DNA of 64,000 nucleotides from Victivallales bacterium (GCA_016936495.1 JAFGXT010000014.1:27035-91034); one strand, 5' to 3'; shown: positions 7,500 to 64,000, counted from the stretch's first letter. Translations and numbers: made by a program. The notes: generated by a model from the sequence alone, not told the origin.

Positions 7500-7654
7500 A
7501 AAAAGATCGGGTTAGACCTTCCATGAACCCGTCAGCACGCCTTCGGTAATATGAAAATCGCTGGAGCCGTTGTCGATGAAGCTTTCGAAAAGTATATTTA
7601 ATTCCAATTTACAAATTTCCTTATTGAAATTGAAGGTCTGCCCCCGATCTTTTT
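7500..7654. repeat. 155-bp element bounded by 21/22-nt imperfect inverted repeats (MITE-like or structured RNA)
   Basis: aaaaagatcgggttagacctt (7500-7520) versus aaggtctgcccccgatcttttt (7633-7654). The arms are complementary except for the central tt/ggc. Located in the divergent region between the FIST gene and glyQS. Confidence 0.4.
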
Positions 7655-7809
7655 TTATCCTTTTGGGTATTTTGTAGACTGGAGATTTGAAATTTCCAGT
7701 ATTGCGTCAATATTAATACCTTACAACTTTTGATGAATGCATAATTAACATAAGTAATTGAGGCGTGAACCGGAATTTTTTCCAATTGACGCCGGATAAA
7801 GGAAAACCT

Positions 7810-16483: not shown

Positions 16484-17173
16484 TTAAATCGGATTGACCG
16501 ACTCTTCAAAATCAATACGATAAAGATCAAGAAATTTGCGGCGCGAAACGTGCCCATCAGCCCACAACACATTGAAACCATCGTTATGCCGATTGGTCTG
16601 AACCCTGAAATAACTTCCTCCTCCTTCCTTGCACCATGTTGCTGCTGAAGCATATGGCGTCCAACCAGTGCCGGTCGCGCCGCTGAGCCGGTCGCCCATC
16701 AGGAAAGTTGCGGAACTTTTACGGATACGCGTTGCTTTAGTCTCCGGATAAGCCTGGGTCGAATACTGATCTTTACATGCCATCAGATGCAGACTGCTGG
16801 CATAATCGACATGATCACCGTTATTTTCATTAAGATAACTATTTTGGGTGGAACTGGGACAGTTAAGGATATTATTGGCGCTGGTGGAGAGGAAGATATG
16901 ATTAGGAATCTTATCCCATCCGGCATATTTTGCCAGCGGAGAGTTCCGATGATGCCAGTTGTAGGCATTGTAATAACGCGAAAGCGGCATGTTATCTTGA
17001 TGATCAGTAGAATATTGAATCACGGTCAGACCAATTTGCTTAAGATTGTTGGCACAAGTAATCTGCTTCGCTTTTTCCCGAGCCTGATTCAGCGTCGGAA
17101 GCAACATTCCCGCTAGAATTGCAATAATTGCAATCACAACCAAGAGTTCTATCAGTGTGAAACTCTTTCTCAT
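16484..17173 (-). CDS. Prepilin-type N-terminal domain protein with H-X9-DG motif (pseudopilin-like, DUF1559-type)
   Basis: [27 protein letters not shown]-terminus and C-terminal [12 protein letters not shown] (H-X9-DG). The ATG at 17173 is preceded by GAGGAGAA; the track ORF starts upstream at 17206. Confidence 0.85.
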
Positions 17174-17225
17174 TTTGTTTTCTCCTCTTTCTGATTGATT
17201 TTTCATATATTTATTAATTCATTTT

Positions 17226-19700: not shown

Positions 19701-20590
19701 AGCATAATTCCTATTTTGACTATTACCATCACCCATGCGGCTAGAACCACAAAACCAAAGCTCTTCTTAAGCCCTTCTCCTGAAATCTTTCTATGAATAC
19801 GTGCTCCGATTTTTGCTCCGAAAAGCGCACCAAAAAGAAGCGCGCCAGCGAGAATATAGTCGATATTGCCGTTGTACGCATGAAATCCGGAGCTGAACAA
19901 TCCGGCGGAGAAAACCAACATCATGCTGGTCTGTGTGGCGGCTTTGGTTTCCTGTCCGACCAAATAAAACAGTATGGGAATGATGATGACCCCGCCGCCG
20001 ATTCCGAGCATGCCGCTGAAAAATCCGACGATCAATCCAAGCATAATCATGACGGGAATGCTGAAATCGCCTCCATGAATGGTCCTGAATCTGAACAGCG
20101 GCGGAATACGCAAGCGGGATAGCACGGCGGGATGGTCGGTAACATCAACCTGCTTCTTCATTATAAAGCTGTCATATAGCATCCAGGCGGCTATCAGCAG
20201 CAACAGAACGGCAAAGATAATCAACAGGACGATATTGACCGGATCTATCTCGCGTCCGTTAAAATTCCAATCGGCAAGTCCTTTGAGATGTTGTACCTGA
20301 GTGGCTCCAAAATAAGCCCCCAGGGGAATCCCGATGCCGAAAAACATCGCTACTCTAATGCCGAGCAATCGTCGATCGAGATGTTCGTACAAGGCGAATG
20401 CCGACGCTCCGGTAACCTGGCAGGCACTGGTGCCCACTGCCAGATTCATCGGCAGTCCCATGAAGATATTCAGGGCGGGAGTGATGATAAACCCGCCTCC
20501 GGCTCCGAAAAGAGCGGTCAAAATCCCCACGGAAAAACCGATCAGGACGCCGAAACCAATAATGTACCAGTTTAAATCAATGCCAAACAT
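19691..20590 (-). CDS. TauE/SafE family anion (sulfite/sulfate-type) exporter
   Basis: 299 aa with two 4-TM repeats carrying GAGGG / GIGGG motifs typical of DUF81/TauE. Confidence 0.85.
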   Translation of the reverse strand: MFGIDLNWYIIGFGVLIGFSVGILTALFGAGGGFIITPALNIFMGLPMNLAVGTSACQVTGASAFALYEHLDRRLLGIRVAMFFGIGIPLGAYFGATQVQHLKGLADWNFNGREIDPVNIVLLIIFAVLLLLIAAWMLYDSFIMKKQVDVTDHPAVLSRLRIPPLFRFRTIHGGDFSIPVMIMLGLIVGFFSGMLGIGGGVIIIPILFYLVGQETKAATQTSMMLVFSAGLFSSGFHAYNGNIDYILAGALLFGALFGAKIGARIHRKISGEGLKKSFGFVVLAAWVMVIVKIGIMLWG

Positions 20591-20609
20591 AAAAATCCTT
20601 TATTAAAAA

Positions 20610-22088
20610 TTATTTGTCGCAAAATTCTTTGGGATGGCGTTTTTTCAGTTCTTCAATCGCCCAGCTGCGATCAGTTTGCTCAAGACGCTCACAGTATTGA
20701 GACAATTTTCCTCGAGCGTGGAACGGTCCGCCTTCGTGAATGACTTCCCACATCGGGTCATGAAAAAAACCTTGTGGCTGGGTGATCATCATTTCGTCGT
20801 GCCAATTCAAATATTTAGCGGCGGCTTCGCGGCAGATGTCCGGACGCTCTTCCGCCAGATTATGTTGTTCATACGGATCATCCTTAAGATTAAACAACAT
20901 TTCTTTCGGGAAAAGATGATAAAAATCGTGATAGGTACGCATGTAGAGCCAATCCCCCCAGCGCACAGACCGTTGACAACCGTGGCAACATTGCGAGAGA
21001 ATCAGTTCGTCGCGACCGGTATCCGCGCCGGAACGGATTGTGTCAGCATAGCTCCGACCGTCCCACCTCGGAAATGGCTCCTTGCCGAGCATGTCCGCCA
21101 AAGTTGGAATCAGGTCGATATTGTAGTGCAATCCGGTATCCGCATGATTTTCACAGCCGTCCGGCCAGCGGATAATCATCGGAATACGGCAGGTAATATT
21201 ATCGGCGGTGCCATGTTCCGCCCACATGCCCAATTCACCATGATTTTCACCATGGTCGGAACTGACGATAACAATCAGATCATCCATAATGCCTTTAGCA
21301 CGCAACGCGTCAAGGACACGACCAATGTGTTCATCCATGTAACGGATACCACAATCATAACCGTCGATATGTCGTCTGACCGAAGCCATGTCGGTAACTT
21401 TTCCTGGCTGACGCGGGAACTGGGGTTTCTCATTGTCGTTGTACATGTTAATATCGAGGATGCCGTGCGGCCCGACGGTATTTTTCAGTTGATAATTGAT
21501 CACATCTTCAGTGATCCAATCCGGGAGTGGTTCATCCTTAAAAGGGTTGCCAAACTCTTCTGGAGCCCGGTAAGGGGTATGAGGATCCCAATAATTAACA
21601 TGAAGGTACCAGTCATCCTTATCGGCATTGTGTTCAATCCAATCAAGAACAGTGGGAGTAACATCTTCGGCCGATTCCATTCCGCTTTTGCCGGTGTCAT
21701 GGATTTCAGTAAATCCGGCGTAAAAAGAGAATAACGAGTGCCGTTCGCCGAAACCGCCGATAAAAGTGGTATGCAATCCTGCCTCTTTATGAAGGAAAGC
21801 CGGCAATGTTTCAAAACTCAGCCAGCTTTTAAAGCCGCGACCGGAACCTTCCAGCCTGACGTCGGCATTAGTGCCGCCATGATTAATGGCACCGTTGTGA
21901 ATACCAAAACGACCGGTCATCATCGCTGAACGCGAAGGCAGACAGGGGGCGTCGGAAGTGTAATAGTTTTCGCATCTTACGCCTTCAGACGCAATCCAGT
22001 CGATGTTTGGAGACGTGTTCCGATGGTATCCATAACAGCCTAGATGGTCAGGACGCAGAGTGTCCAGATCAAAATACAAAATTCTCAT
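20610..22088 (-). CDS. Cys-type sulfatase, no signal peptide
   Basis: MRILYFDLDTLRPDHLGCYG... with the formylglycine motif CLPSRSAMMTGR. The N-terminus has no hydrophobic leader. Confidence 0.9.
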   Translation of the reverse strand: MRILYFDLDTLRPDHLGCYGYHRNTSPNIDWIASEGVRCENYYTSDAPCLPSRSAMMTGRFGIHNGAINHGGTNADVRLEGSGRGFKSWLSFETLPAFLHKEAGLHTTFIGGFGERHSLFSFYAGFTEIHDTGKSGMESAEDVTPTVLDWIEHNADKDDWYLHVNYWDPHTPYRAPEEFGNPFKDEPLPDWITEDVINYQLKNTVGPHGILDINMYNDNEKPQFPRQPGKVTDMASVRRHIDGYDCGIRYMDEHIGRVLDALRAKGIMDDLIVIVSSDHGENHGELGMWAEHGTADNITCRIPMIIRWPDGCENHADTGLHYNIDLIPTLADMLGKEPFPRWDGRSYADTIRSGADTGRDELILSQCCHGCQRSVRWGDWLYMRTYHDFYHLFPKEMLFNLKDDPYEQHNLAEERPDICREAAAKYLNWHDEMMITQPQGFFHDPMWEVIHEGGPFHARGKLSQYCERLEQTDRSWAIEELKKRHPKEFCDK

Positions 22089-22195
22089 GATAGAACCTCT
22101 CTTTTACAGTGTTAATTTTTATAAAAAGCATCTGGGTATCTTTCTCTGGAACGCTTTTATTTATGCTCCCTTTCATAATGTATGCTTTATGCTTT

Positions 22196-23713
22196 TCAGG
22201 CACACCATACCCGTGGCATCAATACCGGTTCATTGCCCATTTCAGCGTGTATGAATTTAAGCAGGAGGTCTTTTTTCAGGTCTTGATGTTCCTGACTGTT
22301 CCATAAATTGGTCAATTCGCCAGGGTCTTGTTCCAGATCGAACAATTCACCGTATTCCCGGTTGTAATAAACGGTTATCTTGTAGCGTTCATTGATGCAG
22401 GAGCGGATGTTCATCGTGGTCGGCTGATGTCGGTTTTCGACAACAACATGGTTACGGGCAGAATCTGATGTCCCTTGCCAAACTTGTTTCTGACTGACTC
22501 CGGTCATGCAGCGCGGCACCTCCAAATCACAAAAATCAAGGACGGTCGGCGCCAAATCAACCAGCGACTGCATTGCCTGACTTTGCCTGTCTGCCGGAAT
22601 GCGCCCGGGGCTGGATACGACAAACGGAATTTTAAGCATGTCTTCATAGTGAAAAATACATTTGGCGGTCAAACCGTGATGTCCGTGGAAATGACCGTGG
22701 TCAGTTGTGAAAACTACTATTGTGTTATCCGCCAAGCCCAGCTCTTCGAGTTTATCGAGAATTTTTCCGATATACTTATCCATCATACTGACCATGCCGT
22801 AATAAACCGCAATATCTTCAGCCAGTTGTTTTGGGTCATGCAAATGAGAATGCAGTCCATGAATACCATTGCCGTCTGGCTCCTCGTACGCACTGCCATC
22901 AACTTCTTTTTGCCTGGTCATGTTGTAATGCGGGGGCATATTGGAAAAATCTTCGTCAGGGTGCATCTGAGGAACTATGAGTTTGTCAGGGTCGTACATC
23001 GTATCCCAAGGCTCAGGAACTAAATATGACGGATGCGGATCGGGAAAACTCGCCCACAGGAAAAAATGATCACCATTTTCCGCGTATTCCTCCATCATGG
23101 CATTAGTGCGTTCGGCAATCCAGGCGTCATAATGATATTCCTCCGGCAGATTCCATTTGTGTCGCTGGCAATCGGCGGTGCCAGCGGGTTTTGAAAAATA
23201 TCCCTGCCAGTCAAATCCTTTTGCCTCCATCCATAATGCATAGTGTTGACCCACATGGGATTCATCGGTATGATTGCGGCACAATTCGACGTGATCAAAG
23301 CCGTAAAAAGGTCCGGTAAACGTCCTCCAGAAGTTCAAATTCTGTTGTAACGGATTAGACTCAATGGAGCGATACTGCGTATGGTCAAGCAATTGTTGAA
23401 AATGCGCTTTGCCGATTAACGCGCTACGGTAACCGCCCTGATGAAAGAAATCTCCAAGAGTGGGCACGTTTTCCGGCAGTTTAGTTCCCAGGCTGTAAGC
23501 TCCGTGCTGACTGGGATACATCCCGGTTATTATCGATGCGCGAGCCGGAGTACAGGTCGGATTAGAACAATAAGCCCGTGTGAATACGGTTCCCGACTTT
23601 GCCAAGCGATCCAGATTAGGAGTGCGCAGCTCGGAATTTATATAACCCAGTGCGTTAAAATGATGTTGATCGCTGGTAATGAGTAAAATATTCGGTCGCT
23701 TGCTCATGGTCAT
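22196..23713 (-). CDS. Cys-type sulfatase, no signal peptide
   Basis: RPNILLITSDQH and formylglycine motif CTPARASIITGMYP. No leader peptide. Confidence 0.9.
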   Translation of the reverse strand: MTMSKRPNILLITSDQHHFNALGYINSELRTPNLDRLAKSGTVFTRAYCSNPTCTPARASIITGMYPSQHGAYSLGTKLPENVPTLGDFFHQGGYRSALIGKAHFQQLLDHTQYRSIESNPLQQNLNFWRTFTGPFYGFDHVELCRNHTDESHVGQHYALWMEAKGFDWQGYFSKPAGTADCQRHKWNLPEEYHYDAWIAERTNAMMEEYAENGDHFFLWASFPDPHPSYLVPEPWDTMYDPDKLIVPQMHPDEDFSNMPPHYNMTRQKEVDGSAYEEPDGNGIHGLHSHLHDPKQLAEDIAVYYGMVSMMDKYIGKILDKLEELGLADNTIVVFTTDHGHFHGHHGLTAKCIFHYEDMLKIPFVVSSPGRIPADRQSQAMQSLVDLAPTVLDFCDLEVPRCMTGVSQKQVWQGTSDSARNHVVVENRHQPTTMNIRSCINERYKITVYYNREYGELFDLEQDPGELTNLWNSQEHQDLKKDLLLKFIHAEMGNEPVLMPRVWCA

Positions 23714-23725
23714 ATCCTTATTGTT

Positions 23726-25048
23726 TTATCTAGTTCCCGGTCGCATGGTTGCTTTCTGATCCGGGTCTATGCCGTCGCGTGGATTCAATAGCGCGGTCGG
23801 CGGCAAGGGTACATCCGAAGCGGGCAGGAAATCGCCGGTAGCCGTCATGACTTCCGCCAGTCTGGAGCGCATTCCCAACAGAATCTGCTGATAATCCGGA
23901 CTTTGAGCCAAATTATTGCTTTCGTTAGGATCAAAAACCAGATCGTACAGGGCTTCTTCAACTGGAGCCATATTTTTCCAGCCCTTATCCAGCCAGCAGT
24001 CTTTTGACGGACTGGCGTCGCAGTTAGGCAGAACCGGGGCATGACGCGGATCATAGCGACGAATATACTTATAACGCTCTGTACGGAGCCCGCGCATAGG
24101 CTCGTAAGCCGCGTGATAATTGATTTCCAACAGAAGGTCATCCCGGACGCAATCACATTGACCGTTGACCAACGGCAGAAATGATACTCCTTGAAGTCGG
24201 GACGGAGCTTCAATATCTAGATACTCACAGAGGGTCGGGAAAATATCAATCTGACCGACCATTGCGTCAATTACTTTGCCGCCGGAAAATCCGTCTGGAC
24301 CGCGCATAAGCAGCATGACACCGATACCTGAGTCTTGCAGATTGCATTTCATTCGCGGAAAAGCAATGCCATGATCGGTGGTACAGATTACCAAGGTATT
24401 TTCGGCAAGACCGCTGTCTTCAAGCGCTTGAAGGACTATGCCGATTTTTGTGTCTAAAATTTCCGCGCTGCGTTTAAATCTTGCCATGTCCAGACGGGTC
24501 TCCGGGGTGTCCGGCAGTGGCGCGGGCGGCATACAATAACGCGTATCCTGAGCCGGGGTTGCTTCAGGAAACTCACGATGAGTTTCAAATAAGCCGACAC
24601 TGAGAAAAAACGGATCGACAGGTTTACTGCGCAGAAATTCCGCCGCGTTGATTTCCGCTTCGGCGGCTTCGCCGAGATGAACGTCATAACCTATGGTTTT
24701 CCAAGGTGTTTGACCATGGGCTATATGTTGTATGCCACTGAGTAGACTGCGATAACCGTGCGGTCGCAGAATATGCAGCAGATGCTTGGAATAATCGTTC
24801 AACGCAAATCCCCGGTGAGCCAGTCCGAGTATGCCGTTGCTATGCGGATATTCTCCGGTAAGCAAACAGGCGCGGCTGGGTGAACAGGTAGGCGAAGAGG
24901 TGAACGCCTGACGGAACATGACGCCTTCTTCGGCCAATCGTTGAAGGTTGGGCGTCGGTACAGCATGACCATAAGGCTGAATATATCTGCCGGTATCATG
25001 GGAATGAATATAAAGGATATTGGGTCTGGTCATGACTGTGTTCCTCAA
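23726..25048 (-). CDS. Cys-type sulfatase, no signal peptide
   Basis: RPNILYIHSHDTG and formylglycine motif CSPSRACLLTGEYP. No leader peptide. Confidence 0.9.
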   Translation of the reverse strand: MRNTVMTRPNILYIHSHDTGRYIQPYGHAVPTPNLQRLAEEGVMFRQAFTSSPTCSPSRACLLTGEYPHSNGILGLAHRGFALNDYSKHLLHILRPHGYRSLLSGIQHIAHGQTPWKTIGYDVHLGEAAEAEINAAEFLRSKPVDPFFLSVGLFETHREFPEATPAQDTRYCMPPAPLPDTPETRLDMARFKRSAEILDTKIGIVLQALEDSGLAENTLVICTTDHGIAFPRMKCNLQDSGIGVMLLMRGPDGFSGGKVIDAMVGQIDIFPTLCEYLDIEAPSRLQGVSFLPLVNGQCDCVRDDLLLEINYHAAYEPMRGLRTERYKYIRRYDPRHAPVLPNCDASPSKDCWLDKGWKNMAPVEEALYDLVFDPNESNNLAQSPDYQQILLGMRSRLAEVMTATGDFLPASDVPLPPTALLNPRDGIDPDQKATMRPGTR

Positions 25049-25060
25049 GTTAAATTAAAA

Positions 25061-25822
25061 TTATGTATTAATACGTCTGGCTAAAAAATCAGAGAGTTTA
25101 TCCGCATGTTTAGCCAACTCTTTACCTAAAGCTTGAATTTCTTCGGTTCGCAAAGGAGATGGACACGAAGTACCAAGAGCTCCTGTTATTCTGCCCTGGG
25201 CGTCGCGTATCGGTGCCGCAAAACGTAAACGCCCCTTGTAAACTTCCTCATTATCCAAAGCAAATCCATTGGCTATAAGATATTTTTTCCGCTTCGCCGG
25301 ACAGTCTCTGATAAGCTCAGGACATTCCATATATCCATCGAAGCGCTCCCGTTCTTCCGCATCGAGAGAAAGATAGAAAAGCCAGCCCCACGGATACTTG
25401 GATAGATCACGGGTCACACTGCCGACTTCAAGCATGGCAATACCGCCTTCGCGCTGCTCTTTAGCCATCACCTGAAAGCCATTGCCATTCCAGTAAACGC
25501 ATAATACGGTACAACCGGTGGTATCCGTGAATGATCCAAGTATGCGCGGTGCCTCAGAACGCATGACGTCGGCGACAGGCGCATTCATTCCGGCAAAATT
25601 CATACGGCGTCCAGGCAGCCAGCACGAACGAGCTTCGTCTTTTTGAACATAACCGCGTTCCGCCAGAGTTTTAAGTATTCTCAGTACGCTGCTCCTGCTT
25701 ACCGGGAGTTGTCGGCACAATTCATTAAAGCCCGCTTCTTTGTGGCTATACAAATATTCCATTATATCCAGACCGGCATCCAGAGCCGGCGTATAGGATT
25801 TACTTTTCGGCTCGGGTGTCAT
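25061..25822 (-). CDS. IclR family transcriptional regulator
   Basis: N-terminal wHTH LDAGLDIMEYLYSHKEAGFNELCRQLPVSRSSVLRILKTLAERGYV plus an IclR-type effector domain. It heads the sulfatase operon. Confidence 0.85.
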   Translation of the reverse strand: MTPEPKSKSYTPALDAGLDIMEYLYSHKEAGFNELCRQLPVSRSSVLRILKTLAERGYVQKDEARSCWLPGRRMNFAGMNAPVADVMRSEAPRILGSFTDTTGCTVLCVYWNGNGFQVMAKEQREGGIAMLEVGSVTRDLSKYPWGWLFYLSLDAEERERFDGYMECPELIRDCPAKRKKYLIANGFALDNEEVYKGRLRFAAPIRDAQGRITGALGTSCPSPLRTEEIQALGKELAKHADKLSDFLARRINT

Positions 25823-27210: not shown

Positions 27211-27924
27211 ATGAAAAGGCAAACGTCTCAAGCTGGTTGTAACTTTACGCTAATAGAACTCCTCATTGTAATCGCCATTATAGCAATTTTAGCGGCAATG
27301 CTGCTTCCTGCGCTGGGTCGGGCGCGGCAAATGGCATACCAAGCATCTTGTATCAACAACGAAAAACAAATGGGTTCGGCGTTCGCCCAGTATGCCAATG
27401 ATTTTGACGATTTTATTCCGCGGGTGATCTGGCAGGGGACGGCTGCCTCTAGTGGGATGCGCAACTCTTGGGATTGGGTGTTGCGTCCATATATGGCAAA
27501 CAACGACAAGATATTTCATTGTCCACTGGATGTTTTTGGCAAGCGCAGTTCATTTGCGGCAACTCCGCAGTCATATATTATCAATCACCCGGCGTCTAAT
27601 GCCACCAAGCAGGATGTGTTCAGCTATACGCCTCCCGGCAATAAGATCGGAAAAATTCGCAAGCCCAGTCAGGTTACAATGCTGGTCTGCGGGAATAACT
27701 CCAAATATCTGACCCGCTGGGTCGGTTGTGACAATCCCTTTGCCTGGAGTTATGGCTATCTCCATTATGAACCGTATATAAGTACGAGCCGAGGGCACAA
27801 TAACGGAACTAATTTCCTGATGATTGACGGTTCCGCACAAAATCTACGTTTTGGTGATTATGCGTATATGTCCGGCGGAAACGCCTATGCGATATCAAGA
27901 ACCTTATGGCAAATAAATCAATAA
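27211..27924 (+). CDS. Prepilin-type N-terminal domain protein with H-X9-DG motif (pseudopilin-like)
   Basis: [27 protein letters not shown]-terminus and C-terminal [12 protein letters not shown] (H-X9-DG). Starts 2 nt after the lacI stop with an AAGGAG RBS. Confidence 0.85.
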
Positions 27925-54554: not shown

Positions 54555-55028
54555 ATTGGACAATTAGAGAACTGGGCTTTCGGTAAAGGTTTCGTTGCAG
54601 AGTCGGTGGCAGTGCTCTTTGAACTCGTAGCGAGCGGGTCATGAGGGAAAGATCGTTCCGGTATAAATTACTTATTGTTTTCCGTTAAACGAAAAAACAA
54701 ACTTCAGGCTTAACTCAATTTGGATGTTCGACGCCAAAGTCCATGACCTGACATTTTCTCCTCTAATATGAGGTTGACGATCTTTTGAACAAATCCGATG
54801 GGTCTGACAATTCCGACAGAATGCTCCGGCAAACACTGCTGGTCTCATCCAAAAGAGCAAGCATCACTCTTTATTGTTTATATTTATATTTCGTCAATTG
54901 AAAAAATTAATCGTTTTTCTTGGGGGTGATGATTGAAGAGGGGTATTTTTTTTTCAATTATCTGCTATAATAATGTTTGGCAGTGCCTTTTATTACCTGA
55001 AAACAATTTAAAACAAAGGGAAACGGGA

Positions 55029-55463
55029 ATGAAGAAAGCAATGGCGTTGTTACTGGTGTGTGGAATGGGGTTAGCAGTGTTTGCGGAAAATGACAATGCG
55101 AAACAGAAGCAGGAATGGAAAAAGAAAGGTGAGGAGTTCCAAAAAAACAAAGCTGAAGCCTTGAAGAAACATGCAGAAAAGATGATGCAGAAAATTAAAG
55201 AAATTGATCCTGCGAAATACGAAGAGTTGTCAAAAATTAAAGACCCTAAAGAGCAACTTAAGGCTGGTTTTGCTTGTCTTGAAAACATGAAACTGGAAAA
55301 GATAAAAAGCATCGACGCCAATAAATACAATGAATTGCAGAAATTGAAGGCTTCTGATCCGAAAGCTTATGCTAAAGCTGTAAATCAAGAGTTTAGGAAG
55401 ATAAAGCAGAGCGCAGCCAAAGCAAGAAAAGAAAAAGCTCAGGAAAAGAAAGCCAAAAAATAA
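55029..55463 (+). CDS. Secreted Lys-rich repeat protein
   Basis: Signal peptide MKKAMALLLVCGMGLAVFA. Internal repeat KIKEIDPAKYEELSKIK / KIKSIDANKYNELQKLK, with a highly K/E-rich sequence. ATG 55029 is preferred to the track start TTG 54933. Confidence 0.55.
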   Translation: MKKAMALLLVCGMGLAVFAENDNAKQKQEWKKKGEEFQKNKAEALKKHAEKMMQKIKEIDPAKYEELSKIKDPKEQLKAGFACLENMKLEKIKSIDANKYNELQKLKASDPKAYAKAVNQEFRKIKQSAAKARKEKAQEKKAKK

Positions 55464-55488: not shown

Positions 55489-55528
55489 TGCGCCGCCAGG
55501 ATTATGTCATCCGCGGCGCATTTTTTTT
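55489..55528 (+). terminator. Intrinsic terminator
   Basis: tgcgccgc (55489-55496) pairs with gcggcgca (55513-55520) and is followed by a T8 run. Confidence 0.75.
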
Positions 55529-55701: not shown

Positions 55702-55718
55702 AAGCTAAAATTTAGCTT
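55702..55718. promoter_or_regulatory. Perfect 17-bp palindrome upstream of the cassette 3 promoter
   Basis: AAGCTAAAATTTAGCTT, about 70 nt upstream of the -35 box. Confidence 0.3.
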
Positions 55719-55786
55719 CGTACTGAAAATTCACCTGGCAATACCTGGACAGTCTGAAAATATTCACGATTTATTTCTGTACTCTC

Positions 55787-55815
55787 TTGACATATGCCGG
55801 ATAGTCAGGTACAAT
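55787..55815 (+). promoter_or_regulatory. Near-consensus sigma70-type promoter of cassette 3
   Basis: TTGACA (55787-55792), 17-nt spacer, TACAAT (55810-55815). Confidence 0.5.
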
Positions 55816-55821
55816 ATTACT

Positions 55822-55843
55822 AAACAAGTTACAGAAACAAGTT
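55822..55843 (+). promoter_or_regulatory. Two 9-bp direct repeats (13-bp period) just downstream of the -10
   Basis: AAACAAGTT at 55822-55830 and at 55835-55843, between the promoter and the LacI start codon. Confidence 0.35.
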
Positions 55844-55858
55844 TACAAGGGTTTTGAC

Positions 55859-56845
55859 ATGGTATCAATGGATGATGTTGCAGCAAGAGCGAAAGTCTCA
55901 AAAGCGACGGTATCGCGAGTGCTTAACGGTAGGACTGGAGTATCCGACACGGTGTGTAAGCGGGTATTGGAAATCTGTCGCGAACTCAATTATACGATTA
56001 ATCATAATATTCAGGATCTGGTACTCAAGGGGCGCAACGGAACCACGCGCAATATCGCCATGGTACTGGTGGGGCGTGATTTTTCCGATCCGGCCTATGC
56101 CGCGCTGATGGATGGAGTAGCAGAGGGAATTCAACGTTTCAACTATAATCTGACGCTGGTAAAGCTTGATGGCGGCGAGCGTGATGTTTATGATTTGCCT
56201 CCAATGTTACGGGATGGGCGTGCCGATGGGATGCTGGTTTCCGGGGAGCTCAAGCCTGAACATTTGGAATTGTTCCGACAGATGGCAATGGAGACGATAG
56301 TGATTGGCAGTTATACTCCAGCATTGCTCAAGGGCTTAGGTTGTGTAGAGATTAATTTTCAAAAACGCGCCTTTGAAATTGTGGAAGCGGCACTCAAACA
56401 TGGCTGCCGCAGATTAGCGTTGTTTGAAGAAAATCCCGGCAATTATTCCGCCGAACTTTTCCTGCGCTTTATTGCTCAGGCCGCCGCGGAGTACGAGTTG
56501 GATTTTAACGAGCAGAATTATTACACCGGTACCGGAGCGTATAGTGGTGCCCGTGAATCGTTATTACCGGTGTTTCGCCAGGAACAATTGCCATTCGACT
56601 GTATGATATGCACGGATTATCGTACCGCGACAGAGATTTCTGCTATACTTTCCGCTCGATACGGTTTTGATGCGAAGCCGGATATGCTTATCATAACCAC
56701 TTCACCATATAGGCATTTCAGTTTATCCACTCCTGCCGTTTATCTTGATTGCGGCAGTCATGAACTGGCATTGACCAGCGTAACTCAGTTGGTCGGACGT
56801 TTACAGAGTAAGGATCGGCATCCTCAGGTTCTGATTCAGGTTTAA
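55859..56845 (+). CDS. LacI family transcriptional regulator
   Basis: SMDDVAARAKVSKATVSRVLNG HTH plus a PBP-type effector domain. Confidence 0.9.
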   Translation: MVSMDDVAARAKVSKATVSRVLNGRTGVSDTVCKRVLEICRELNYTINHNIQDLVLKGRNGTTRNIAMVLVGRDFSDPAYAALMDGVAEGIQRFNYNLTLVKLDGGERDVYDLPPMLRDGRADGMLVSGELKPEHLELFRQMAMETIVIGSYTPALLKGLGCVEINFQKRAFEIVEAALKHGCRRLALFEENPGNYSAELFLRFIAQAAAEYELDFNEQNYYTGTGAYSGARESLLPVFRQEQLPFDCMICTDYRTATEISAILSARYGFDAKPDMLIITTSPYRHFSLSTPAVYLDCGSHELALTSVTQLVGRLQSKDRHPQVLIQV

Positions 56846-56872
56846 AACATAAAACAACAGGAGACAACAATT

Positions 56873-57367
56873 ATGTACAAGACAATCCTCAGCTTATTGA
56901 CGCTCATCGCGATCATCACCGGCTTACAGGCGGGTAAAAAACAATTTATCCATTTTAACGCCAGTCAGATACAACGCCAGGCAAACAGTAAATATTGCGT
57001 TGTCGACAGTGTGAACAATACCATCACCATCTCCGGTGGCGCTCCCGAGGCGCAAGCCTCATGGCAGCACCTTGTCCTACCGTTTCCGTTCAAACCCGCA
57101 GCGGGCAAGATTTTCATCATCAGCGGGGGAATGCGTGCTTTCGATATGAGTGGCGCATTCAGAGTCGCTGCCAGACTGATTGACGCTTCCGGCAAATCCA
57201 TCTCATACGAAGGTGTTGTTATAAATAAAAATCAGGATTGGACGCCTTTTTCGAAGGAATTCACCGTTTCGGACAAAGTCGCCAAACTGGAACTGTATCT
57301 GATCGGTGTCAAACTCGGTTCAAGCAGCAAAGTTGAACTCAGAAAATTTGCGGTAGAAGAAAAATAA
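56873..57367 (+). CDS. Small secreted or anchored beta-sandwich (CBM-like) protein
   Basis: N-terminal hydrophobic leader [20 protein letters not shown]. The remaining ~140 aa have a beta-strand-rich pattern ending in [24 protein letters not shown], as in CBM4/22-like modules. No family was verified. Confidence 0.5.
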
Positions 57368-57381
57368 CCAGGAGAGGAACA

Positions 57382-58092
57382 ATGCATTATAAGAAAACAG
57401 CATATTTTACGCTTATAGAGCTCTTAGTTGTGATTGCTATTATTGCAATTCTGGCTGGCATACTGCTCCCGGCGTTGAATATAGCAAGACTCAAGGCCAA
57501 AAGTATAAATTGCACCAATAATCTCAAACAGCTTGGTGTATCTTGGAACATGTATATAAATGATTATCAGAGATATCTTCCACAGCATGTAGCGACAAAC
57601 CCGTCAACCCTGTCATGGGGGTACATATTTTTCAATCAGGACTATATTTCGCTAAAATCCATGTATTGCGATCAGACGGAGATTTGTGCCAACAACGGCG
57701 GCTGGTACAAAAAATTTCTTGGATCATCCCGGAATGATGCCTCGAACGCATTCCATTTTCAATATGTAAGCTACGGCTACAATACTATTGGCATAGGCGA
57801 TGACTGGTATGGGAACGGCGGCAACAGAAATGATCCGCCAAAACCTGCCATTCCCGGCAAGATCATGATGCCGTCGTCAAAGATTTTATTGACGGAAACT
57901 ATTATGAGTGGAGCTGCCAGACCATATCATATCATAGATCAGGGAAATGCCTTGCTGGATCTTCGTCATCAATCTACCGCCAATTATTTGTGGGTTGATG
58001 GAAGGGTTAGTGCTGAACGCTTTACCTATTTAGAGCTACAAATGAATACAGACAATCGCAAGCGATATTTTCACCCATATTCTACATATTAA
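57382..58092 (+). CDS. Prepilin-type N-terminal domain protein with H-X9-DG motif (pseudopilin-like)
   Basis: [27 protein letters not shown]-terminus and C-terminal [12 protein letters not shown] (H-X9-DG). RBS AGGAGAGG. Confidence 0.85.
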
Positions 58093-58108
58093 CAATATAG
58101 GAAATATA

Positions 58109-61100
58109 ATGAAATCACAAAAATTAATGGTATTTGCATGCCTTTTTATGTTTATGGGCATGAAGCAGGTTTATGGAGAGAATTTACTTTCTGACCCCTC
58201 AATTCGTTGGGGAAATCGGGTGCGCAACGGAGCGGATGCCACAGTTGGAGCTGTTATTAACGGAACGATTGAAAGCGAAAGACGCAACCGTAGCGGCGAA
58301 GTAATGATCCTCAATGAAAATTATCTCTCTCTGACACCGGGAAAATATTATCAAGTGGAAGTGGAAGCAGCCGCTGCCACTCAAAAACAGAGTGTGGCTT
58401 TGATGTTGCAAATGCCAGGTAGTAAGCGTCGTCCTTTTCCAATTACAAACATTACATTGGCGGCTGGGGAGAAAACCCGCATAACAATGAATTTCCACGC
58501 GAATGAAGATGAAAAATCTCTGCGTATACATATTATTCATCTGGATCCGGGCAAATTGCTTATCAGTCAGATACAATGCGGGGAAATCTCTGAAGCAACA
58601 TATATGGAACGGAGAAAAGGAACAACGCTTACCAGCTGGAAATGCTCAGGAGATTCTTTAGGAAAAATTTTCAAAGCGTTCAACGCGCTTGATTCCGGAA
58701 TCAAAGAAGGAATTCTGGAAGCAAAGGTATTGCCCTATGGCAATGGATTCATCGCCAACAACGTAGCGTGGGCGGCTTCGAAAATAGAGACGGTGGAAGT
58801 AACTTTCCGTGCTTTCGATGAAGGAGGACACTTGTATTTCAACTTTAAATGTGTTGATGACGGCAAAGAGTTAAGCTCCTTCATGACTGCCGCCATGCCT
58901 GCGGACGGCAAATTTCATACTATAAGATTTAATGTGGCACAAGACAAAGCCTGGCGCGGACAAGTAAAAGAACTTAAACTCTCATGGCATAATCTCTACA
59001 ATCCGTGTCGCATATCTTTGGCTTCAATCGAAGCGAAAAGCTTTGACAATCTGATTGTTAACGCAGATCGGCTCAAACCTGGGACCTCAAACTTTGTCGA
59101 TCTCATAAAGCCCAGAGGCAACTATTTACTGGAATGGAAAGGTCAAAGTAATCCCGGCATTCGTCTGGAACTGCTTGATCGCAGGCATGATGTCATTGAA
59201 ACTATAGAGTTGCCAAAGAATGAAATGCAGCGCAAATTTTCTGCGCCGGAGCTGACCGTCAATGCCAGACTTTCCATTGGCATCGATGGCAGCGGCATTC
59301 CAGTTCTGAAACTCCTTGAGCTTCCTCCCGTCAACCGCAATGACTCCTCATGGAAAGCTAAATGGATATGGAGCAGAAATGGTTCTGGACCAAATAATAC
59401 CACCGTCTGGTTCCGTCGCGAGTTCAAACTGGCCGATACTCCGGTCAACGCATCTTTGTTGGCTACCGGCGACGACAGTATGGAGGCCATTATCAATGGC
59501 AAGTACATTAACGTCTCCTCCGCTTGGGATATTCCGGGACTTATTGATATTAGCAAACTGCTCAAGACCGGCAACAATGAAGTAATTCTGAAAGTCCACA
59601 ACCATCAGGCATGGGGCGGAGCGATCGCAGAACTATATATTAATTCAAAGAATGACAAAGACATCTGGATATTGACCGATGAATCATGGAAATGCGCGGA
59701 AGGCAGCAAGCAGCCCGCGCTTATCGACAAAGACGTGCATGTAATCGGATCGGTTCCGGCCATGCCCTGGGGTAATCGACTTGGATACCAGTATATCGGC
59801 CCTAAAGTGCAGGTGTCTATGCTTGAATCCAGCCACCAGAACTTTACGCTTGATGTTATACAAGTTCCCGTCGGACTGTTCTCGGATAAACTTGGAATGC
59901 GGCTTGTCATGCCGGATGGTTCCTCACGGCAGACGCAAGCCATAATCCGTCCCCCCCTAAGTGAATGGAAGCCGGGCAGAATTACCGTTGCCTACACGCT
60001 CCCTCCTCAAAGCGCCAAGCACAGCGGGGAAGCCATGATGTATATAGAATCCCCTATGGTGAAAGTTGTCAATCAGCTTCCGGCAGGGAAAATAAGCATT
60101 GGGAAAAGCGGACGTAAAGAACTCGCTTACGCCGCCATGACCGGCGCTGGATCGCGTCCCTGGTTTGTCATCAACGGAGAGAAAATCCCGCCGATTTACT
60201 ATGATCTTCCCGGCAATTTCATCACCGGTCCGGAACAACGTGATTTTCTGGTGCGCAACGCCGTCTCGGGCGGACATCGCGTAATCAGGATGGCTCATAA
60301 CGTTTATGATATCTGGAAAGCTCCGGGACGCTATGATTTCAGTTCAATCGACAAGGCAATGGAAACTATTGTTCTAAATGCTCCAGACGCTTATGTCCTG
60401 ATGGTTTCAGCCACATATATGCCGCGCTGGTGGCTGGAGAAAAATCCCGATGAAGCCGTAAAATTTCATGGAGGAGAAGCGCTGAGCCGGGGAGATGACT
60501 TTCAGACTATATCATCCAGAAAATGGCTTGATGAATTACGAGTATTCTATTCTAAACTGTTCGAACATATAAGAAAGTCCTCCTATGCGGGAAAAATAAT
60601 CGGTCTAGCGCCGACCGATGGCAGTACCTGGGAGTGGATGTGGAGTCATGGACGCGGGCATAGTAAACGCGTATACAGCGGCTGGGCGCCTGCGGACATC
60701 AACGCCTATCGCGCTTTTCTCCGCAAGAAGTACAAAACCGATGAGCAACTGGCAAGAGCCTGGAATCGTCCGGATCTGCGCTTCGAAAAGGTACTGCCCC
60801 CGACTCCAGAGCGTATCGATCAGGCATCGGTCGTTGACATGCTTGATCCATCAAAAGATATGGACATAATTGATTACTCCATTGCACGCAATGAAATACT
60901 TTCCGACTCCTTCATCGCGATATGCAAAATGATTAAGGACAATTCAAACAATCAATGGCTTGCCGGATCATATTACGGCTATATGGTAATGTTCAGTTTT
61001 ATGTCTTTCTATCTTCAGGACGGCGGTCATATGCGCATCAGTAAAATAGCCCGCTCGCCATATGTGGATTTTGTCTATGGCCCGACAGTATATCATTGGC

Positions 61101-62227
61101 GTAAACTTGGTGTCGCAGATGGACCGATGCAACCAGCGGAAGCCTTTTCCTCTCATGGTAAAACGGTTATCTGTGAACTTGACGTCCGCACATTCACCGA
61201 AAAGACGGAGTACGAAGCACGCAACGGTAGAGTTAATACCGTCGACCAGTCTGTCAGTATGATGAACCGCGCCTTCGGAATGATGCTGACCCGCGGTATG
61301 GGCGGACATTGGATGGAGATGTATGAACGCTGGTTTTGCGAACCGGTATTGCTGGAACTGATGAAATATCAATTGGATTTATATCGCGATCTGCCTGAAA
61401 AACCGGCAGGAACCACTCCGCGTGAAGTATGTGTGGTATCTGACGAAGATAGTACCTTCCATGTAAAAACCAATATGGGTAACGGCATTCATGTTTCATT
61501 GATCGCGGAATTGATGCGCCGTCTGCCGGAAACCGGGGTTTCTTTTGGACATGTACTTAAAGACGACCTACTGGAACCCGGAAAAATTCCGCCTCATAAG
61601 ATGTATATCATCACTAATTTGTTCCTGCTTGATGAAAAAGAACGCTCTGCGCTTATCAAACGTTTTGAAGAAGAAAAAGCCACCGTCTTATGGCTGTATG
61701 CTCCCGGTGCCATCATGCCCGGACAGAAACCTGACGCCATCAATGTTTCAAAATTGCTGGGACCGGGATTCACCATGCTTAAATCTCGCCAGAACATGCA
61801 ATTGAAATGTCCCGGAGCCGACGATATTATATGCCGTTCCATAACCGGTCCGTGGTTTCTTCCCGTTGACGGCTTTGATCAAATAATAGCCACCACGCAG
61901 GACAATTCTCCGGCGATAGTGAAATGGCGGCGCAATAATACCGTCAACTATTTTTCTCCCGTTCCCAACCTTTCCCCAAAATTGCTCCGCGATATCGCCG
62001 CTGAAGCCGGAGTACACATTTATTCAGATAGCGGAGATCCGGTCAGCGTCGGCAATGATTTTATTTTTCTCCATGCAAAAACCGGAGGAGAAAAATCGTT
62101 CAGACTACGGGAAGGACAACATGCACGAGCTATCGCCGGCCCGCTGAAAGGCAACTTGATTTCCGGTCAGAAATGGCAGGCATTGCCTGGTCAAACCTAT
62201 GGCTTCATGATTGAAACGCACAGATAA
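58109..62227 (+). CDS. Secreted 1372-aa multidomain putative glycoside hydrolase (CBM-like + galactose-binding-like + GH42-like barrel)
   Basis: Signal peptide ...FMFMGMKQVYGE. WKAKWIWS...TVWFRREFKL...NNEVILKVHNHQAWGG is a galactose-binding-domain-like pattern. The C-terminal half has YMPRWWLEKNPDE and LARAWNRPDLRFEKVLPPTPER, reminiscent of GH42-type enzymes. Family not verified. Confidence 0.55.
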   Translation: MKSQKLMVFACLFMFMGMKQVYGENLLSDPSIRWGNRVRNGADATVGAVINGTIESERRNRSGEVMILNENYLSLTPGKYYQVEVEAAAATQKQSVALMLQMPGSKRRPFPITNITLAAGEKTRITMNFHANEDEKSLRIHIIHLDPGKLLISQIQCGEISEATYMERRKGTTLTSWKCSGDSLGKIFKAFNALDSGIKEGILEAKVLPYGNGFIANNVAWAASKIETVEVTFRAFDEGGHLYFNFKCVDDGKELSSFMTAAMPADGKFHTIRFNVAQDKAWRGQVKELKLSWHNLYNPCRISLASIEAKSFDNLIVNADRLKPGTSNFVDLIKPRGNYLLEWKGQSNPGIRLELLDRRHDVIETIELPKNEMQRKFSAPELTVNARLSIGIDGSGIPVLKLLELPPVNRNDSSWKAKWIWSRNGSGPNNTTVWFRREFKLADTPVNASLLATGDDSMEAIINGKYINVSSAWDIPGLIDISKLLKTGNNEVILKVHNHQAWGGAIAELYINSKNDKDIWILTDESWKCAEGSKQPALIDKDVHVIGSVPAMPWGNRLGYQYIGPKVQVSMLESSHQNFTLDVIQVPVGLFSDKLGMRLVMPDGSSRQTQAIIRPPLSEWKPGRITVAYTLPPQSAKHSGEAMMYIESPMVKVVNQLPAGKISIGKSGRKELAYAAMTGAGSRPWFVINGEKIPPIYYDLPGNFITGPEQRDFLVRNAVSGGHRVIRMAHNVYDIWKAPGRYDFSSIDKAMETIVLNAPDAYVLMVSATYMPRWWLEKNPDEAVKFHGGEALSRGDDFQTISSRKWLDELRVFYSKLFEHIRKSSYAGKIIGLAPTDGSTWEWMWSHGRGHSKRVYSGWAPADINAYRAFLRKKYKTDEQLARAWNRPDLRFEKVLPPTPERIDQASVVDMLDPSKDMDIIDYSIARNEILSDSFIAICKMIKDNSNNQWLAGSYYGYMVMFSFMSFYLQDGGHMRISKIARSPYVDFVYGPTVYHWRKLGVADGPMQPAEAFSSHGKTVICELDVRTFTEKTEYEARNGRVNTVDQSVSMMNRAFGMMLTRGMGGHWMEMYERWFCEPVLLELMKYQLDLYRDLPEKPAGTTPREVCVVSDEDSTFHVKTNMGNGIHVSLIAELMRRLPETGVSFGHVLKDDLLEPGKIPPHKMYIITNLFLLDEKERSALIKRFEEEKATVLWLYAPGAIMPGQKPDAINVSKLLGPGFTMLKSRQNMQLKCPGADDIICRSITGPWFLPVDGFDQIIATTQDNSPAIVKWRRNNTVNYFSPVPNLSPKLLRDIAAEAGVHIYSDSGDPVSVGNDFIFLHAKTGGEKSFRLREGQHARAIAGPLKGNLISGQKWQALPGQTYGFMIETHR

Positions 62228-62240
62228 TACAGGATTGATC

Positions 62241-64000
62241 ATGACTGAATTAGATTATCGCCCCACACCGTTCTGGTTCTGGAATCACCGGCTGGAAAAA
62301 GAGGAAATAGAACTTCAGGTCAAACTTATGGCCGACGCCGGATGTGGAGGATTCTTTATCCACCCCAGAGCCGGGCTGAAAACGCCATATCTGTCTGAAG
62401 CCTGTTTCGAGGCGGTCGGCTGGGCGGGATACGCGGCAGAGAAATACGGCGTCAAGGCATGGCTTTATGATGAAGACCCTTTCCCTTCAGGCGCGGCTGG
62501 CGGGAGTATATTTTTCGAACATCCGGAATTCGCGGCACGCTCCATTCGTTTCTATGAACTGGAGCCGGACACAAGTGGACTTGTGGAAGGTGATGTGGGC
62601 AAAGGTATTATCCTTGAAGCCTGGGGAATTCGCTGCGATGATGATGGAAAACAGCTTGAACAGTGTGATCTATCCACTTACGTGGGCGTAGTCAGGCCGG
62701 ATTTCTTCATGACGGCATGGGATAATTCCTATTATGCGCAGATATCCGGCAAAGAACGTTTTCCGCATTACCGGGGAGAATGCTTTTATCCCCGCAACCG
62801 CTTTAGTTGTCAATTGCAAGGTAAAGGCTGGAAAGTCTATGTAGTAACCGCCGAAATTATGGCGGGAACAGAGAAATATGGCGCGATGCCGGACAACCTC
62901 AACCATGAATGCGTGAGTTTTTTTATTAATAAAACCCACGAAGAATACCGCAAACGCTTCGGGGATAAGTTTGGAACCGTTATTCCCGGAATATTTACCG
63001 ATGAACCAGCAATGGGTGGTTCACCCCCGTGGACCGGGGAATTGGAGTCGTGTTTTCTTGCCGAACATGGCTACAGCTTGCGAGGTAATTACGCTTATCT
63101 GTTCACGGACGGGGATAATGAAATGACTGCCAAAGTAAGGCTGGACTACTGGAATACCGTCGATGCGTTGTTTGCCCGTAATTATTTCGGACAAATAAGC
63201 TCATGGTGCCACAAGAATAATCTGCTGCTGGTCGGACATTGTATCGGCGAGGAAAGTCCAACGTCCAGTGGTGGCGGCACTTCTCTTGCAGATATGCAGA
63301 AATATTTCGACATCCCTGGTTTTGATCACATCACCAATAATATTCCTAACGGTGATTTTCAGTCCCTCAATTTTGGCGGCAAGCTAATCGCTTCTGCTGC
63401 CGCCCGTGCGGGAATCCCTCGGATCATGAGTGAATGTTTCGCGTGCAATCCCTTTAATTTCGGCATGGATGGTATGAAAAAAATTGCCAGTTGGCTGTTT
63501 TCCTTAGGTATAAACTATCTCGTGCCACACGGATTCTTTTATTCGTATGACGGGTTTCGCAAATATGAAGCGGGTAAATCATTTTTCTTTCAAGACCCTG
63601 AATTCGCGCGTTTTAAAGATTTTTCCACGTGGGCTGCCGGTATAGGAGAGCTTTTAGGACAATCTTCGCTCCTGGCGCATCTTTGCCTGATTGTACCGAT
63701 GGAGCAGATTCGTTCTTTGCTTCCAGCTCACCCTGAACAAGCCCGAATATTAGAGGAAAAGGTGTTTGCTACGGTAAAACAATTAATGGAGCATCAGATA
63801 CAATTTGATCTTATCGACGAGCGTACACTGCAACAAGGGCGCGTCAGCTCCGGACATATATATTGCGGTAAACAAACTTACAGCGAAGTGCTTATGGCAG
63901 TAGATGACTCTCAATTATCAGCGTGGTGCGGCGATTACAGCATACGCCATCATATGCTGCCACGTGATCTGGAACACATCGCCGCACTCTGCGGTTTGGC
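62241..64000 (+). CDS. Putative cytoplasmic glycoside hydrolase (PFWFWN-type N-terminus); 3' end runs off the window
   Basis: Missing from the ORF track because no stop lies in the window. The frame is open from ATG 62241 to 64000. It reads MTELDYRPTPFWFWNHRLEKEE...GGFFIHPRAGL...AWLYDEDPFPSGAAGG...GIFTDEPA, a pattern I associate with uncharacterised GH (GH106/GH2-like) annotations. No signal peptide. Confidence 0.55.
   Translation, partial: MTELDYRPTPFWFWNHRLEKEEIELQVKLMADAGCGGFFIHPRAGLKTPYLSEACFEAVGWAGYAAEKYGVKAWLYDEDPFPSGAAGGSIFFEHPEFAARSIRFYELEPDTSGLVEGDVGKGIILEAWGIRCDDDGKQLEQCDLSTYVGVVRPDFFMTAWDNSYYAQISGKERFPHYRGECFYPRNRFSCQLQGKGWKVYVVTAEIMAGTEKYGAMPDNLNHECVSFFINKTHEEYRKRFGDKFGTVIPGIFTDEPAMGGSPPWTGELESCFLAEHGYSLRGNYAYLFTDGDNEMTAKVRLDYWNTVDALFARNYFGQISSWCHKNNLLLVGHCIGEESPTSSGGGTSLADMQKYFDIPGFDHITNNIPNGDFQSLNFGGKLIASAAARAGIPRIMSECFACNPFNFGMDGMKKIASWLFSLGINYLVPHGFFYSYDGFRKYEAGKSFFFQDPEFARFKDFSTWAAGIGELLGQSSLLAHLCLIVPMEQIRSLLPAHPEQARILEEKVFATVKQLMEHQIQFDLIDERTLQQGRVSSGHIYCGKQTYSEVLMAVDDSQLSAWCGDYSIRHHMLPRDLEHIAALCGL

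Follow-up and report, generated by a model that had tools for sequence, protein, structure and literature searches.

What is the function of a small secreted protein whose gene lies between a repressor gene and a pseudopilin gene, ahead of two genes for glycoside hydrolases (GH)? This question is raised by the end of a 64,000-nucleotide (nt) stretch of DNA from a Victivallales bacterium (GCA_016936495.1, JAFGXT010000014.1:27035-91034), hereafter called the window. Positions 55702-64000 hold, on the + strand, a cassette of five genes, the last of which runs off the window end. A preliminary description, made from the sequence alone, proposed that the small protein of 164 amino acids (aa) is a dedicated glycan-binding partner of the pseudopilin, analogous to a SusD/SusE-type accessory. 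Our analysis shows that the five genes form one tightly packed operon, probably repressor-controlled, for the degradation of a sugar polymer. The 164-aa protein is, by its modelled fold and its relatives, a member of a large superfamily of carbohydrate-binding modules (CBM), and its gene neighbourhoods suggest that it is most probably a helper of the enzymes rather than a dedicated partner of the pilin. The following features are referred to below:

55489-55528, + strand: intrinsic terminator of the upstream 176-aa gene, hairpin of -19.4 kcal/mol (z -4.5, 200 shuffles) followed by U8
55787-55815, + strand: sigma-70-type promoter TTGACA-17-TACAAT, matching the consensus at 11 of 12 positions
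55822-55830 and 55835-55843, + strand: putative LacI operator, two direct copies of AAACAAGTT with the core AAC-AA-GTT, overlapping the expected transcription start
55859-56845, + strand: LacI-family transcriptional repressor, 328 aa (PF00356)
56873-57367, + strand: secreted stand-alone protein of 164 aa, predicted beta-jelly-roll of the CBM4/9/16/22 (CBM_4_9) superfamily (AlphaFold2 model, Foldseek, PF02018 on relatives)
57382-58092, + strand: H-X9-DG/DUF1559-type pseudopilin, 236 aa (TIGR02532, motif, AlphaFold2 model)
58109-62227, + strand: secreted multidomain glycoside-hydrolase-like enzyme, 1372 aa (domains by Pfam and orthologue profile)
59360-59785, + strand: CBM67-like lectin module of this enzyme, aa 418-559 (eight-orthologue profile)
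60323-60961, + strand: GH42-like TIM barrel of this enzyme, aa 739-951 (PF02449)
62241-64000, + strand: GH106-like enzyme (alpha-L-rhamnosidase family) without signal peptide (PF17132), incomplete because the window ends at its codon 586

Gene content and gene order of the cassette are established. The preliminary description had placed all five genes exactly, as the list of open reading frames (ORFs) confirmed, and its LacI, its leader-bearing beta-sandwich protein of CBM type, its H-X9-DG pseudopilin and its leaderless GH running off the window were all recovered by the family and fold searches reported below, as was its near-consensus promoter with direct repeats. Successive genes are separated by 27, 14, 16 and 13 nt. 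Both the 164-aa gene and the pilin gene have an AGGAG-like ribosome-binding site ahead of them. Because the strong terminator closes the upstream gene (54933-55463), the cassette has its 5' boundary here and starts afresh at its own promoter. The 3' end, which the earlier description had left to be found by extending the contig, could be located on related contigs: GH106-like orthologues of 847-863 aa are followed by a convergent gene, hence the GH106-like gene is the last one of the operon. A scan of 53-64 kb against Rfam revealed no known RNA element or riboswitch.

The 164-aa protein starts with a signal peptide of approximately residues 1-20, which ends in GLQA ahead of GKK and has no lipobox Cys; a signal-like helix occupies residues 2-15 of its AlphaFold2 model. 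The mature protein has a pI of 9.6, and the sole Cys of the protein, C42, lies within strand 2. The model (pLDDT 78 overall, above 85 for residues 70-164) is an all-beta sandwich, for which Foldseek returned as top matches in the PDB CBM16, CBM22, CBM4, the hyaluronan-binding CBM70 and a porphyran-binding CBM (E 4e-7 to 5e-6); the entries 3oeb and 2zew (CBM16), 4xuo (CBM22) and 1gu3 (CBM4) gave E 6e-7 to 5e-6 and target-normalised TM-scores of approximately 0.57-0.63. At the sequence level the protein is isolated, since a word-based homology search found three other clusters only, which are 65-80% identical and include one from a metagenome-assembled genome (MAG) of the Victivallales with the annotation hypothetical, and a search of the PDB sequences with the family profile gave nothing significant. 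An exhaustive hidden Markov model search with a four-sequence profile, however, assembled 55 family representatives. About 20 of them stand alone, with a length of 160-175 aa and a signal peptide in every case; the remaining ones are larger secreted proteins that carry the domain as one module, together with DUF4838, DUF6259, metallophosphoesterase or CBM_4_9 repeats. Residues G55, R101, Y112, D122 and W123 are kept family-wide. In several representatives the matched region coincides with a match to PF02018, and scores on this model were also obtained for the stand-alone relatives P0019 and P0022 (precomputed match) and the orthologue in locus L026 (22.5 bits). Fold search and these transitive Pfam matches place the 164-aa protein in the CBM4/9/16/22 superfamily, as a divergent and unannotated member that stands alone and may bind a glycan. 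The idea that it is a detached copy of the N-terminal CBM-like domain of the 1372-aa enzyme obtained a probability of 33% only with hhalign. An 80%-identical homologue (P0003, EukProt TRINITY_DN13155) with a 33-aa C-terminal read-through occurs in a eukaryote transcriptome assembly. It probably stems from a contaminating or associated bacterium, and its presence there points to transcription of the gene family.

The operon is conserved as a unit in related genomes. In the ENA contigs L003-L008 all five genes recur in the order LacI-CBM-pilin-enzyme-GH106, with products of 164 aa (65% identical), 236 aa (80%), 1372 aa (78%) and, for the GH106-like protein, 847-855 aa, after which a convergent SET-domain gene follows. 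The order is also kept in the Victivallales MAG locus L025, in which LacI, pilin and enzyme are 48-52% and the CBM-like protein 33% identical. In locus L026 (1776-16718), from a 5.69-Mb contig of another Victivallales MAG (CAXXKX010000003.1), the order is LacI, CBM, a first pilin (pilinA), two DUF4838 genes, a second pilin (pilinB), a 1302-aa enzyme and a GH106-like gene, and in L009 it is LacI, CBM (30% identical), pilin and DUF4838; hence the LacI-CBM-pilin module also heads DUF4838 cassettes. The expectation that the 164-aa ORF is conserved next to pilin genes in related genomes was therefore borne out. The window cassette looks like the L026 locus minus its pilinA-DUF4838 block. Such arrangements suggest that units of pilin and enzyme are shuffled as modules downstream of a single LacI-CBM head.

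Nevertheless, the 164-aa gene has no constant place beside the pilin gene: it can be found upstream, downstream, or behind the enzymes at a distance of one to three genes. It lies 3' of the pilin gene in L010 (pilin-CBM) and L013 (pilin-CBM-beta-helix enzyme), and it is the last gene in L015 (pilin, beta-helix enzyme, pectate-lyase-like gene, 345-aa gene, CBM), L017 (DUF4838, pilin, GH2, CBM) and L019 (LacI, pilin, DUF4838, CBM). Contexts L002, L012 and L016 were too short to judge and were left out of the 10 informative contexts; in L002 a DUF4838-like enzyme gene precedes the CBM gene, as in L019. An H-X9-DG pilin gene lies in the same directon as the stand-alone CBM gene in all 10 informative contexts. 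To widen this sample, genome contigs were scanned with the close alignment and metagenome contigs in two further scans, all of which found nothing.

Moreover, the cassette exists without the small gene. Pilin-enzyme-GH106 cassettes with a pilin of 42-43% identity but no stand-alone CBM gene were found in the Lentisphaeria loci L024 and L027, and L021, in which the pilin is 64% identical, has neither a stand-alone CBM gene nor a visible GH106-like gene on its contig; its upstream gene encodes a 633-aa GH-like protein with an N-terminus that weakly resembles the CBM-like domain. The enzymes of L024 (9917-14500) and L027 (4899-9443) are about 140-155 aa longer and have their own N-terminal CBM_4_9-like domain duplicated; the extra length is close to the size of the mature 164-aa protein, which may be compensation or coincidence. 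In L027, a Lentisphaeria MAG, a divergent AraC-type regulator and a clear GH78 alpha-L-rhamnosidase (164-3970) head the cassette in place of LacI and the CBM-like gene. Outside the Planctomycetes-Verrucomicrobia-Chlamydiae (PVC) group, a MAG labelled Spirochaetes (L022, JAFLEE010000001.1, 9971-14113) also encodes an orthologue of the 1372-aa enzyme over its full length (45% identity), and no pilin gene was found near the enzyme in this locus. On its opposite strand, at 6354-8687, lies a gene for a 778-aa protein with a weak match to the CBM-like domain.

The relation of fusion and fission between the CBM-like domain and the enzymes is established. The 797-aa DUF4838 enzyme of L019 corresponds in an alignment to residues 7-753 of P0013, and P0013 has in addition a fused CBM-like domain at 796-899; hence the pair of DUF4838 enzyme and stand-alone CBM is the split form of the fused protein. 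In a Rosetta stone check no fusion of the CBM-like domain with a pilin was found among the 55 representatives. Because the position relative to the pilin varies, orthologous cassettes lack the 164-aa gene and the domain is fused to enzymes but never to a pilin, the 164-aa protein would be a facultative CBM acting in trans. Most probably it assists the enzymes, rather than serving the pilin as a dedicated partner, the role first proposed for it.

Regulation of the operon can be read from the conservation of its promoter and putative operator, which is established as well. The promoter is the best-scoring site across the 9.2 kb scanned. Four other loci (L003/L004, L009, L025, L026) share its -35 box, its -10 box and the first repeat; their LacI proteins are 48-80% identical to that of the window, and the conservation of promoter and repeat is well beyond chance. 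In all five loci an element (T/C/A)AACAAGTTAC(A/G) lies directly 3' of the -10 box, and the direct repeat of the window consists of this conserved element and a second, less conserved copy. The L003 version is a 14-bp near-palindrome, TGTAACAAGTTACA, as LacI-family operators generally are. Hence, LacI would be expected to bind at the AACAAGTTAC element, and the operon as a whole would most naturally be under autoregulated repression. The helix-turn-helix domain of the repressor (residues 3-47) clearly passes PF00356 (57 bits vs cut-off 27), and residues 1-324 align full-length to CcpA, RbsR and PurR-type models, far below their equivalog cut-offs. A Peripla_BP Pfam match was not found in the window protein at E <= 0.01; the L003 orthologue has a weak match to PF00532. 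Public gene calls give LacI lengths of 351-378 aa (L003 8914-9969; L004 5911-7047) and run over promoter and operator. Since the start codon is kept in the orthologues and the promoters align, the true start gives a protein of approximately 328 aa.

The enzymes give hints on the substrate. The 1372-aa protein had been described as a secreted multi-CBM enzyme; it has a signal peptide (called by eye), an N-terminal domain that is CBM_4_9-like at a sub-threshold score, a CBM67-like module and a GH42-like barrel. With the eight-orthologue profile, the lectin module matched the CBM67-like fungal lectins 6t0q and 6kbj (E ~1e-19) and residues 138-261 of 3w5m (E 2.6e-10), the GH78 rhamnosidase SaRha78A of Streptomyces avermitilis; these residues we take to be its CBM67 domain. 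SaRha78A is reported to bear CBM67, a Ca-dependent L-rhamnose-binding module (PMC4690510), and a Pleurotus lectin has been classed as CBM67-like (PMC11186620). The barrel passes PF02449 with 26.2-29.8 bits (cut-off 21), a match that covers profile positions 41-234 of 376 and hence about half of the model; matches to GH42 structures in the PDB were marginal (E 0.003-0.1). The C-terminal approximately 400 aa are conserved without family assignment. Full-length orthologues (40-78% identity) occur in Lentisphaerota MAGs and in the one Spirochaetes MAG. The GH106-like frame is open from the ATG at 62241 to the window end, i.e. over 586 codons without a stop. It passes PF17132 (41 bits vs cut-off 29) with a partial match to profile positions 261-484 of 743; in addition it matches 6q2f in the PDB (E 5e-6) and scores far below the cut-off of the NCBIfam equivalog. 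The CBM67-like module, the presence of one or two GH106-like genes in each locus, and the GH78 rhamnosidase in L027 point to a substrate that is likely rhamnose- and/or galactose-bearing.

The pseudopilin combines an invariant N-terminus with a variable head. Its class III signal-like N-terminus (nt 57406-57468) contains the FTLIELL helix with Glu+5, and the motif H196-x9-D206-G207 is encoded at nt 57967-58002. The protein passes TIGR02532 (22.6 vs cut-off 16.3 bits), lies exactly at the cut-off of PF07963 and remains sub-threshold for PF07596; with TIGR04294 it reaches 13 bits against a cut-off of 19, whereas the other two pilins of the window pass with 23.2 and 19.2. Across 31 relatives F9, T10, L11, I12 and E13 are invariant, and so are C44, C96, H196, D206 and G207. 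The first ~60 residues match models of GspG, PilA and ComGC and solved pilins. The family is large, at least 7899 related clusters at 90% identity, mostly from Victivallales, with names (JGI among the sources) such as prepilin-type processing-associated H-X9-DG protein, DUF1559 domain-containing protein or type II secretion system protein. In the AlphaFold2 model (pLDDT 87.5, pTM 0.83), an N-terminal helix of 50 residues is followed by a helical alpha-beta loop and a head with an antiparallel sheet. Foldseek of this model against the PDB gave no match beyond the N-terminal helix, and the head domain appears to be structurally uncharacterised. The three window pilins have near-identical helices and heads of only 28-32% identity, which suggests a shared assembly machine with operon-specific heads.

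Taking these lines together, we consider it on balance somewhat probable that the cassette is a LacI-autoregulated polysaccharide-utilisation operon of Victivallales (Lentisphaerota) in which the pilin is an operon component serving the secreted proteins and the 164-aa protein a CBM in trans. Without inducer, LacI would sit on the AACAAGTTAC operator overlapping the transcription start, and a sugar product of the pathway would release it, after which all five genes would be transcribed from the single promoter. The two products with Sec signals, the 164-aa CBM-type module and the 1372-aa GH42-like/CBM67-like enzyme, would attack or bind a glycan outside the cytoplasm, probably one with rhamnose and/or galactose, whereas the signal-less GH106-like exo-enzyme would complete the imported oligosaccharides in the cytoplasm. 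The pseudopilin would be an operon-specific standard part of the carbohydrate-active enzyme (CAZyme) operons of this lineage, with an invariant assembly helix and a divergent head, and most likely couples the secreted proteins to a shared machine of the type II secretion or type IV pilus-like kind, for export or surface retention. The 164-aa protein would do separately what the domain does when fused at the C-terminus of related secreted enzymes.

However, some observations weigh against this proposal, and the rival explanations build on them. The CBM gene directly adjoins the pilin gene in seven of the 10 informative contexts (window, L003, L025, L026, L009, L010, L013), compared to about 12% expected from the pilin density of the window (3 in 64 kb), which keeps room for a specific link to the pilin. 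Hence, the 164-aa protein could after all be a dedicated partner that sits on the pilin head; a pilus-like fibre would then present a module for glycan binding and serve for capture, in analogy to the Sus surface glycan-binding proteins. In line with this assumption, the LacI-CBM-pilin module is kept while the downstream enzyme switches from GH42-like to DUF4838, and the 164-aa protein lacks a membrane anchor and would thus depend on a partner for its retention at the cell surface. But the five cases with the CBM gene upstream of the pilin share orthologous LacI genes and are therefore not independent events, the gene has no fixed orientation to the pilin and follows the enzymes in L015, L017 and L019, and pilin orthologues of 42-64% identity work in cassettes without it. 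Fusions to enzymes are common, compared to none with a pilin. A conserved-cysteine link finds no support either: an intermolecular disulfide between Cys42 of the 164-aa family and an odd cysteine of the pilin was considered and rejected because the cysteine parity of the partner pilins is inconsistent. We therefore regard the dedicated partner as rather unlikely.

A more general idea has, in our view, a slightly lower probability still. Lentisphaerota, and perhaps other PVC bacteria, might possess a pilus-based equivalent of the Sus system, in which the pseudopilin heads of each operon recruit enzymes and free CBMs, and a shared type II/type IV machine builds a substrate-specific fibre for capture, secretion or retention.

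The second group of counter-arguments concerns the processing of the pilin. Canonical prepilin peptidases require Gly at position -1. In the cassette pilin this residue is Tyr (nt 57403-57405), in the other two window pilins, at 16484-17206 (- strand) and 27211-27924 (+ strand), it is Ser and Asn, and Gly(-1) is found in only 10 of the 120 closest relatives, while Glu+5 is invariant. Processing and assembly of the pilin are uncertain because Gly(-1) is missing; its absence could mean a peptidase of relaxed specificity or uncleaved, membrane-anchored proteins, and if a pilus-based Sus equivalent exists, such a cleavage site would point to a lineage-specific processing system. Furthermore, the operon encodes no transporter that links the secreted and the cytoplasmic steps. 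Both points fit an alternative in which the pseudopilin is an uncleaved, N-terminally anchored protein of the inner membrane, the periplasmic head of which binds or senses a solute or oligosaccharide, with the 164-aa protein as a periplasmic binding module that aids uptake. The Pfam label of DUF1559 as solute-binding, SBP_bac_10 (PMC2754498), and the head, unmatched among solved pilins beyond the N-terminal helix, would agree with it. Nevertheless, we consider this alternative quite improbable, given that Glu+5 and the whole hydrophobic helix are invariant, a hallmark of type IV filament subunits, that the N-terminal 60 residues match the GspG, PilA and ComGC models, and that the predicted long helix followed by an antiparallel sheet is a pilin-like topology.

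Finally, glycan binding by the 164-aa protein is not assured because it fails the PF02018 cut-off (14.9 vs 25.9 bits, E 0.035), as it does that of every other curated family, and because its content of aromatic residues is low (2 Trp, 3 Tyr). That it is a non-binding structural beta-sandwich, e.g. a secretion chaperone, spacer or inhibitor, with a CBM-like fold that is merely ancestral, is the least probable of the alternatives, since the family is consistently found in CAZyme operons and fused to CAZyme-like enzymes at CBM-typical positions, its family-wide residues are kept, and the faster evolution relative to LacI, pilin and enzyme seen in L025 is also typical of ligand-specific CBMs.

All parts of the proposed operon come from known superfamilies: LacI, type IV pilin-like/H-X9-DG, CBM_4_9, GH42-like, CBM67-like and GH106-like. 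Compared to the CBM_4_9 superfamily (CBM4, CBM9, CBM16, CBM22; PF02018), the 164-aa protein has the same predicted beta-jelly-roll, and its domain is likewise appended to secreted glycan-active enzymes, but here it is a stand-alone secreted polypeptide below the Pfam cut-off and tied to pseudopilin operons. The pilin shares the FTLIELL helix, Glu+5 and the C-terminal H-x9-DG with the H-X9-DG/DUF1559 proteins of Lentisphaerota and Planctomycetota (TIGR04294, TIGR02532, PF07596), from which it differs by its sub-threshold scores with TIGR04294 and PF07596 and the lacking Gly(-1). With the major pseudopilin GspG/PulG of the type II secretion system and with type IV pilins it has the first ~60 residues and the helix-then-beta-sheet architecture in common, but it scores far below their equivalog cut-offs, its head is unmatched in the PDB, and its gene belongs to a catabolic operon instead of a gsp/pil cluster. 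Among the enzymes, the 1372-aa protein is far larger in architecture than characterised GH42 beta-galactosidases, of which it matches about half the barrel, and its match to the GH78 rhamnosidase SaRha78A lies in the CBM67-like module; the likeness of the last gene product to GH106 alpha-L-rhamnosidases is a partial match.

The whole resembles the Sus-like polysaccharide utilisation loci (PULs) of Bacteroidota, which have the same co-regulated mix of a regulator, non-catalytic protein(s) of the glycan-binding type, secreted endo-type and intracellular exo-type enzymes. Unlike these PULs, the operon has no SusC/SusD pair, TonB-dependent transporter or lipoprotein anchoring, the pseudopilin fills the accessory slot, and the regulator is of LacI type instead of a hybrid two-component system or SusR. 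A gene for a SusC-type TonB-dependent transporter was found neither in the operon nor in its orthologous loci. The initial comparison of the 164-aa protein with SusD/SusE-type accessories thus holds only loosely, as it has no lipobox Cys, no SusC-like transporter beside it and no SusD fold.

In the open-access literature searched we found no description of cassettes that combine a regulator, their own pseudopilin, CAZymes and optionally a free CBM, and no published function of the H-X9-DG/DUF1559 family. The sole functional remark found on DUF1559 is the solute-binding label together with stress-responsive expression in Rhodopirellula (PMC2754498). Hence, the PUL-like operon type with a pseudopilin accessory appears to be undescribed in that literature, and its stand-alone CBM subfamily is unannotated. 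Few paralogous families of Lentisphaerota and Planctomycetota are as large as that of the H-X9-DG/DUF1559 pilins. In the window and its relatives these pilins occur one per operon beside a sugar-responsive regulator, secreted CAZymes and sometimes a free CBM-type protein. This provides a testable hypothesis for how PVC bacteria, which are without SusC/D systems, organise the extracellular degradation of glycans. Moreover, an unannotated stand-alone CBM-like family and a family of large GH42-like/CBM67-like enzymes are now defined for biochemical study.

The remainder of the window adds some minor observations. It contains exactly three pilin genes, each beside a regulator gene and CAZyme-like genes, in agreement with the count of three cassettes in the preliminary description. 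The other two cassettes consist of a GntR-PBP regulator with two beta-helix enzymes and of LacI with a GH39-like protein and a CBM9/CBM_4_9 protein; the small extra protein is restricted to the third. Just upstream of the latter, the ORF 54933-55463 with its own strong terminator encodes a lysine-rich, low-complexity protein of 176 aa without a family match, which has a signal-peptide-like start internal to it (MKKAMALLLVCGMGLAVFA). Between the first and the second cassette, at 18465-25822 on the - strand, lie genes for three sulfatase-like paralogues, a radical-SAM maturase-like protein and an IclR-like regulator, as judged by eye from their N-termini; the paralogy of the sulfatase-like proteins is backed by BLASTP.

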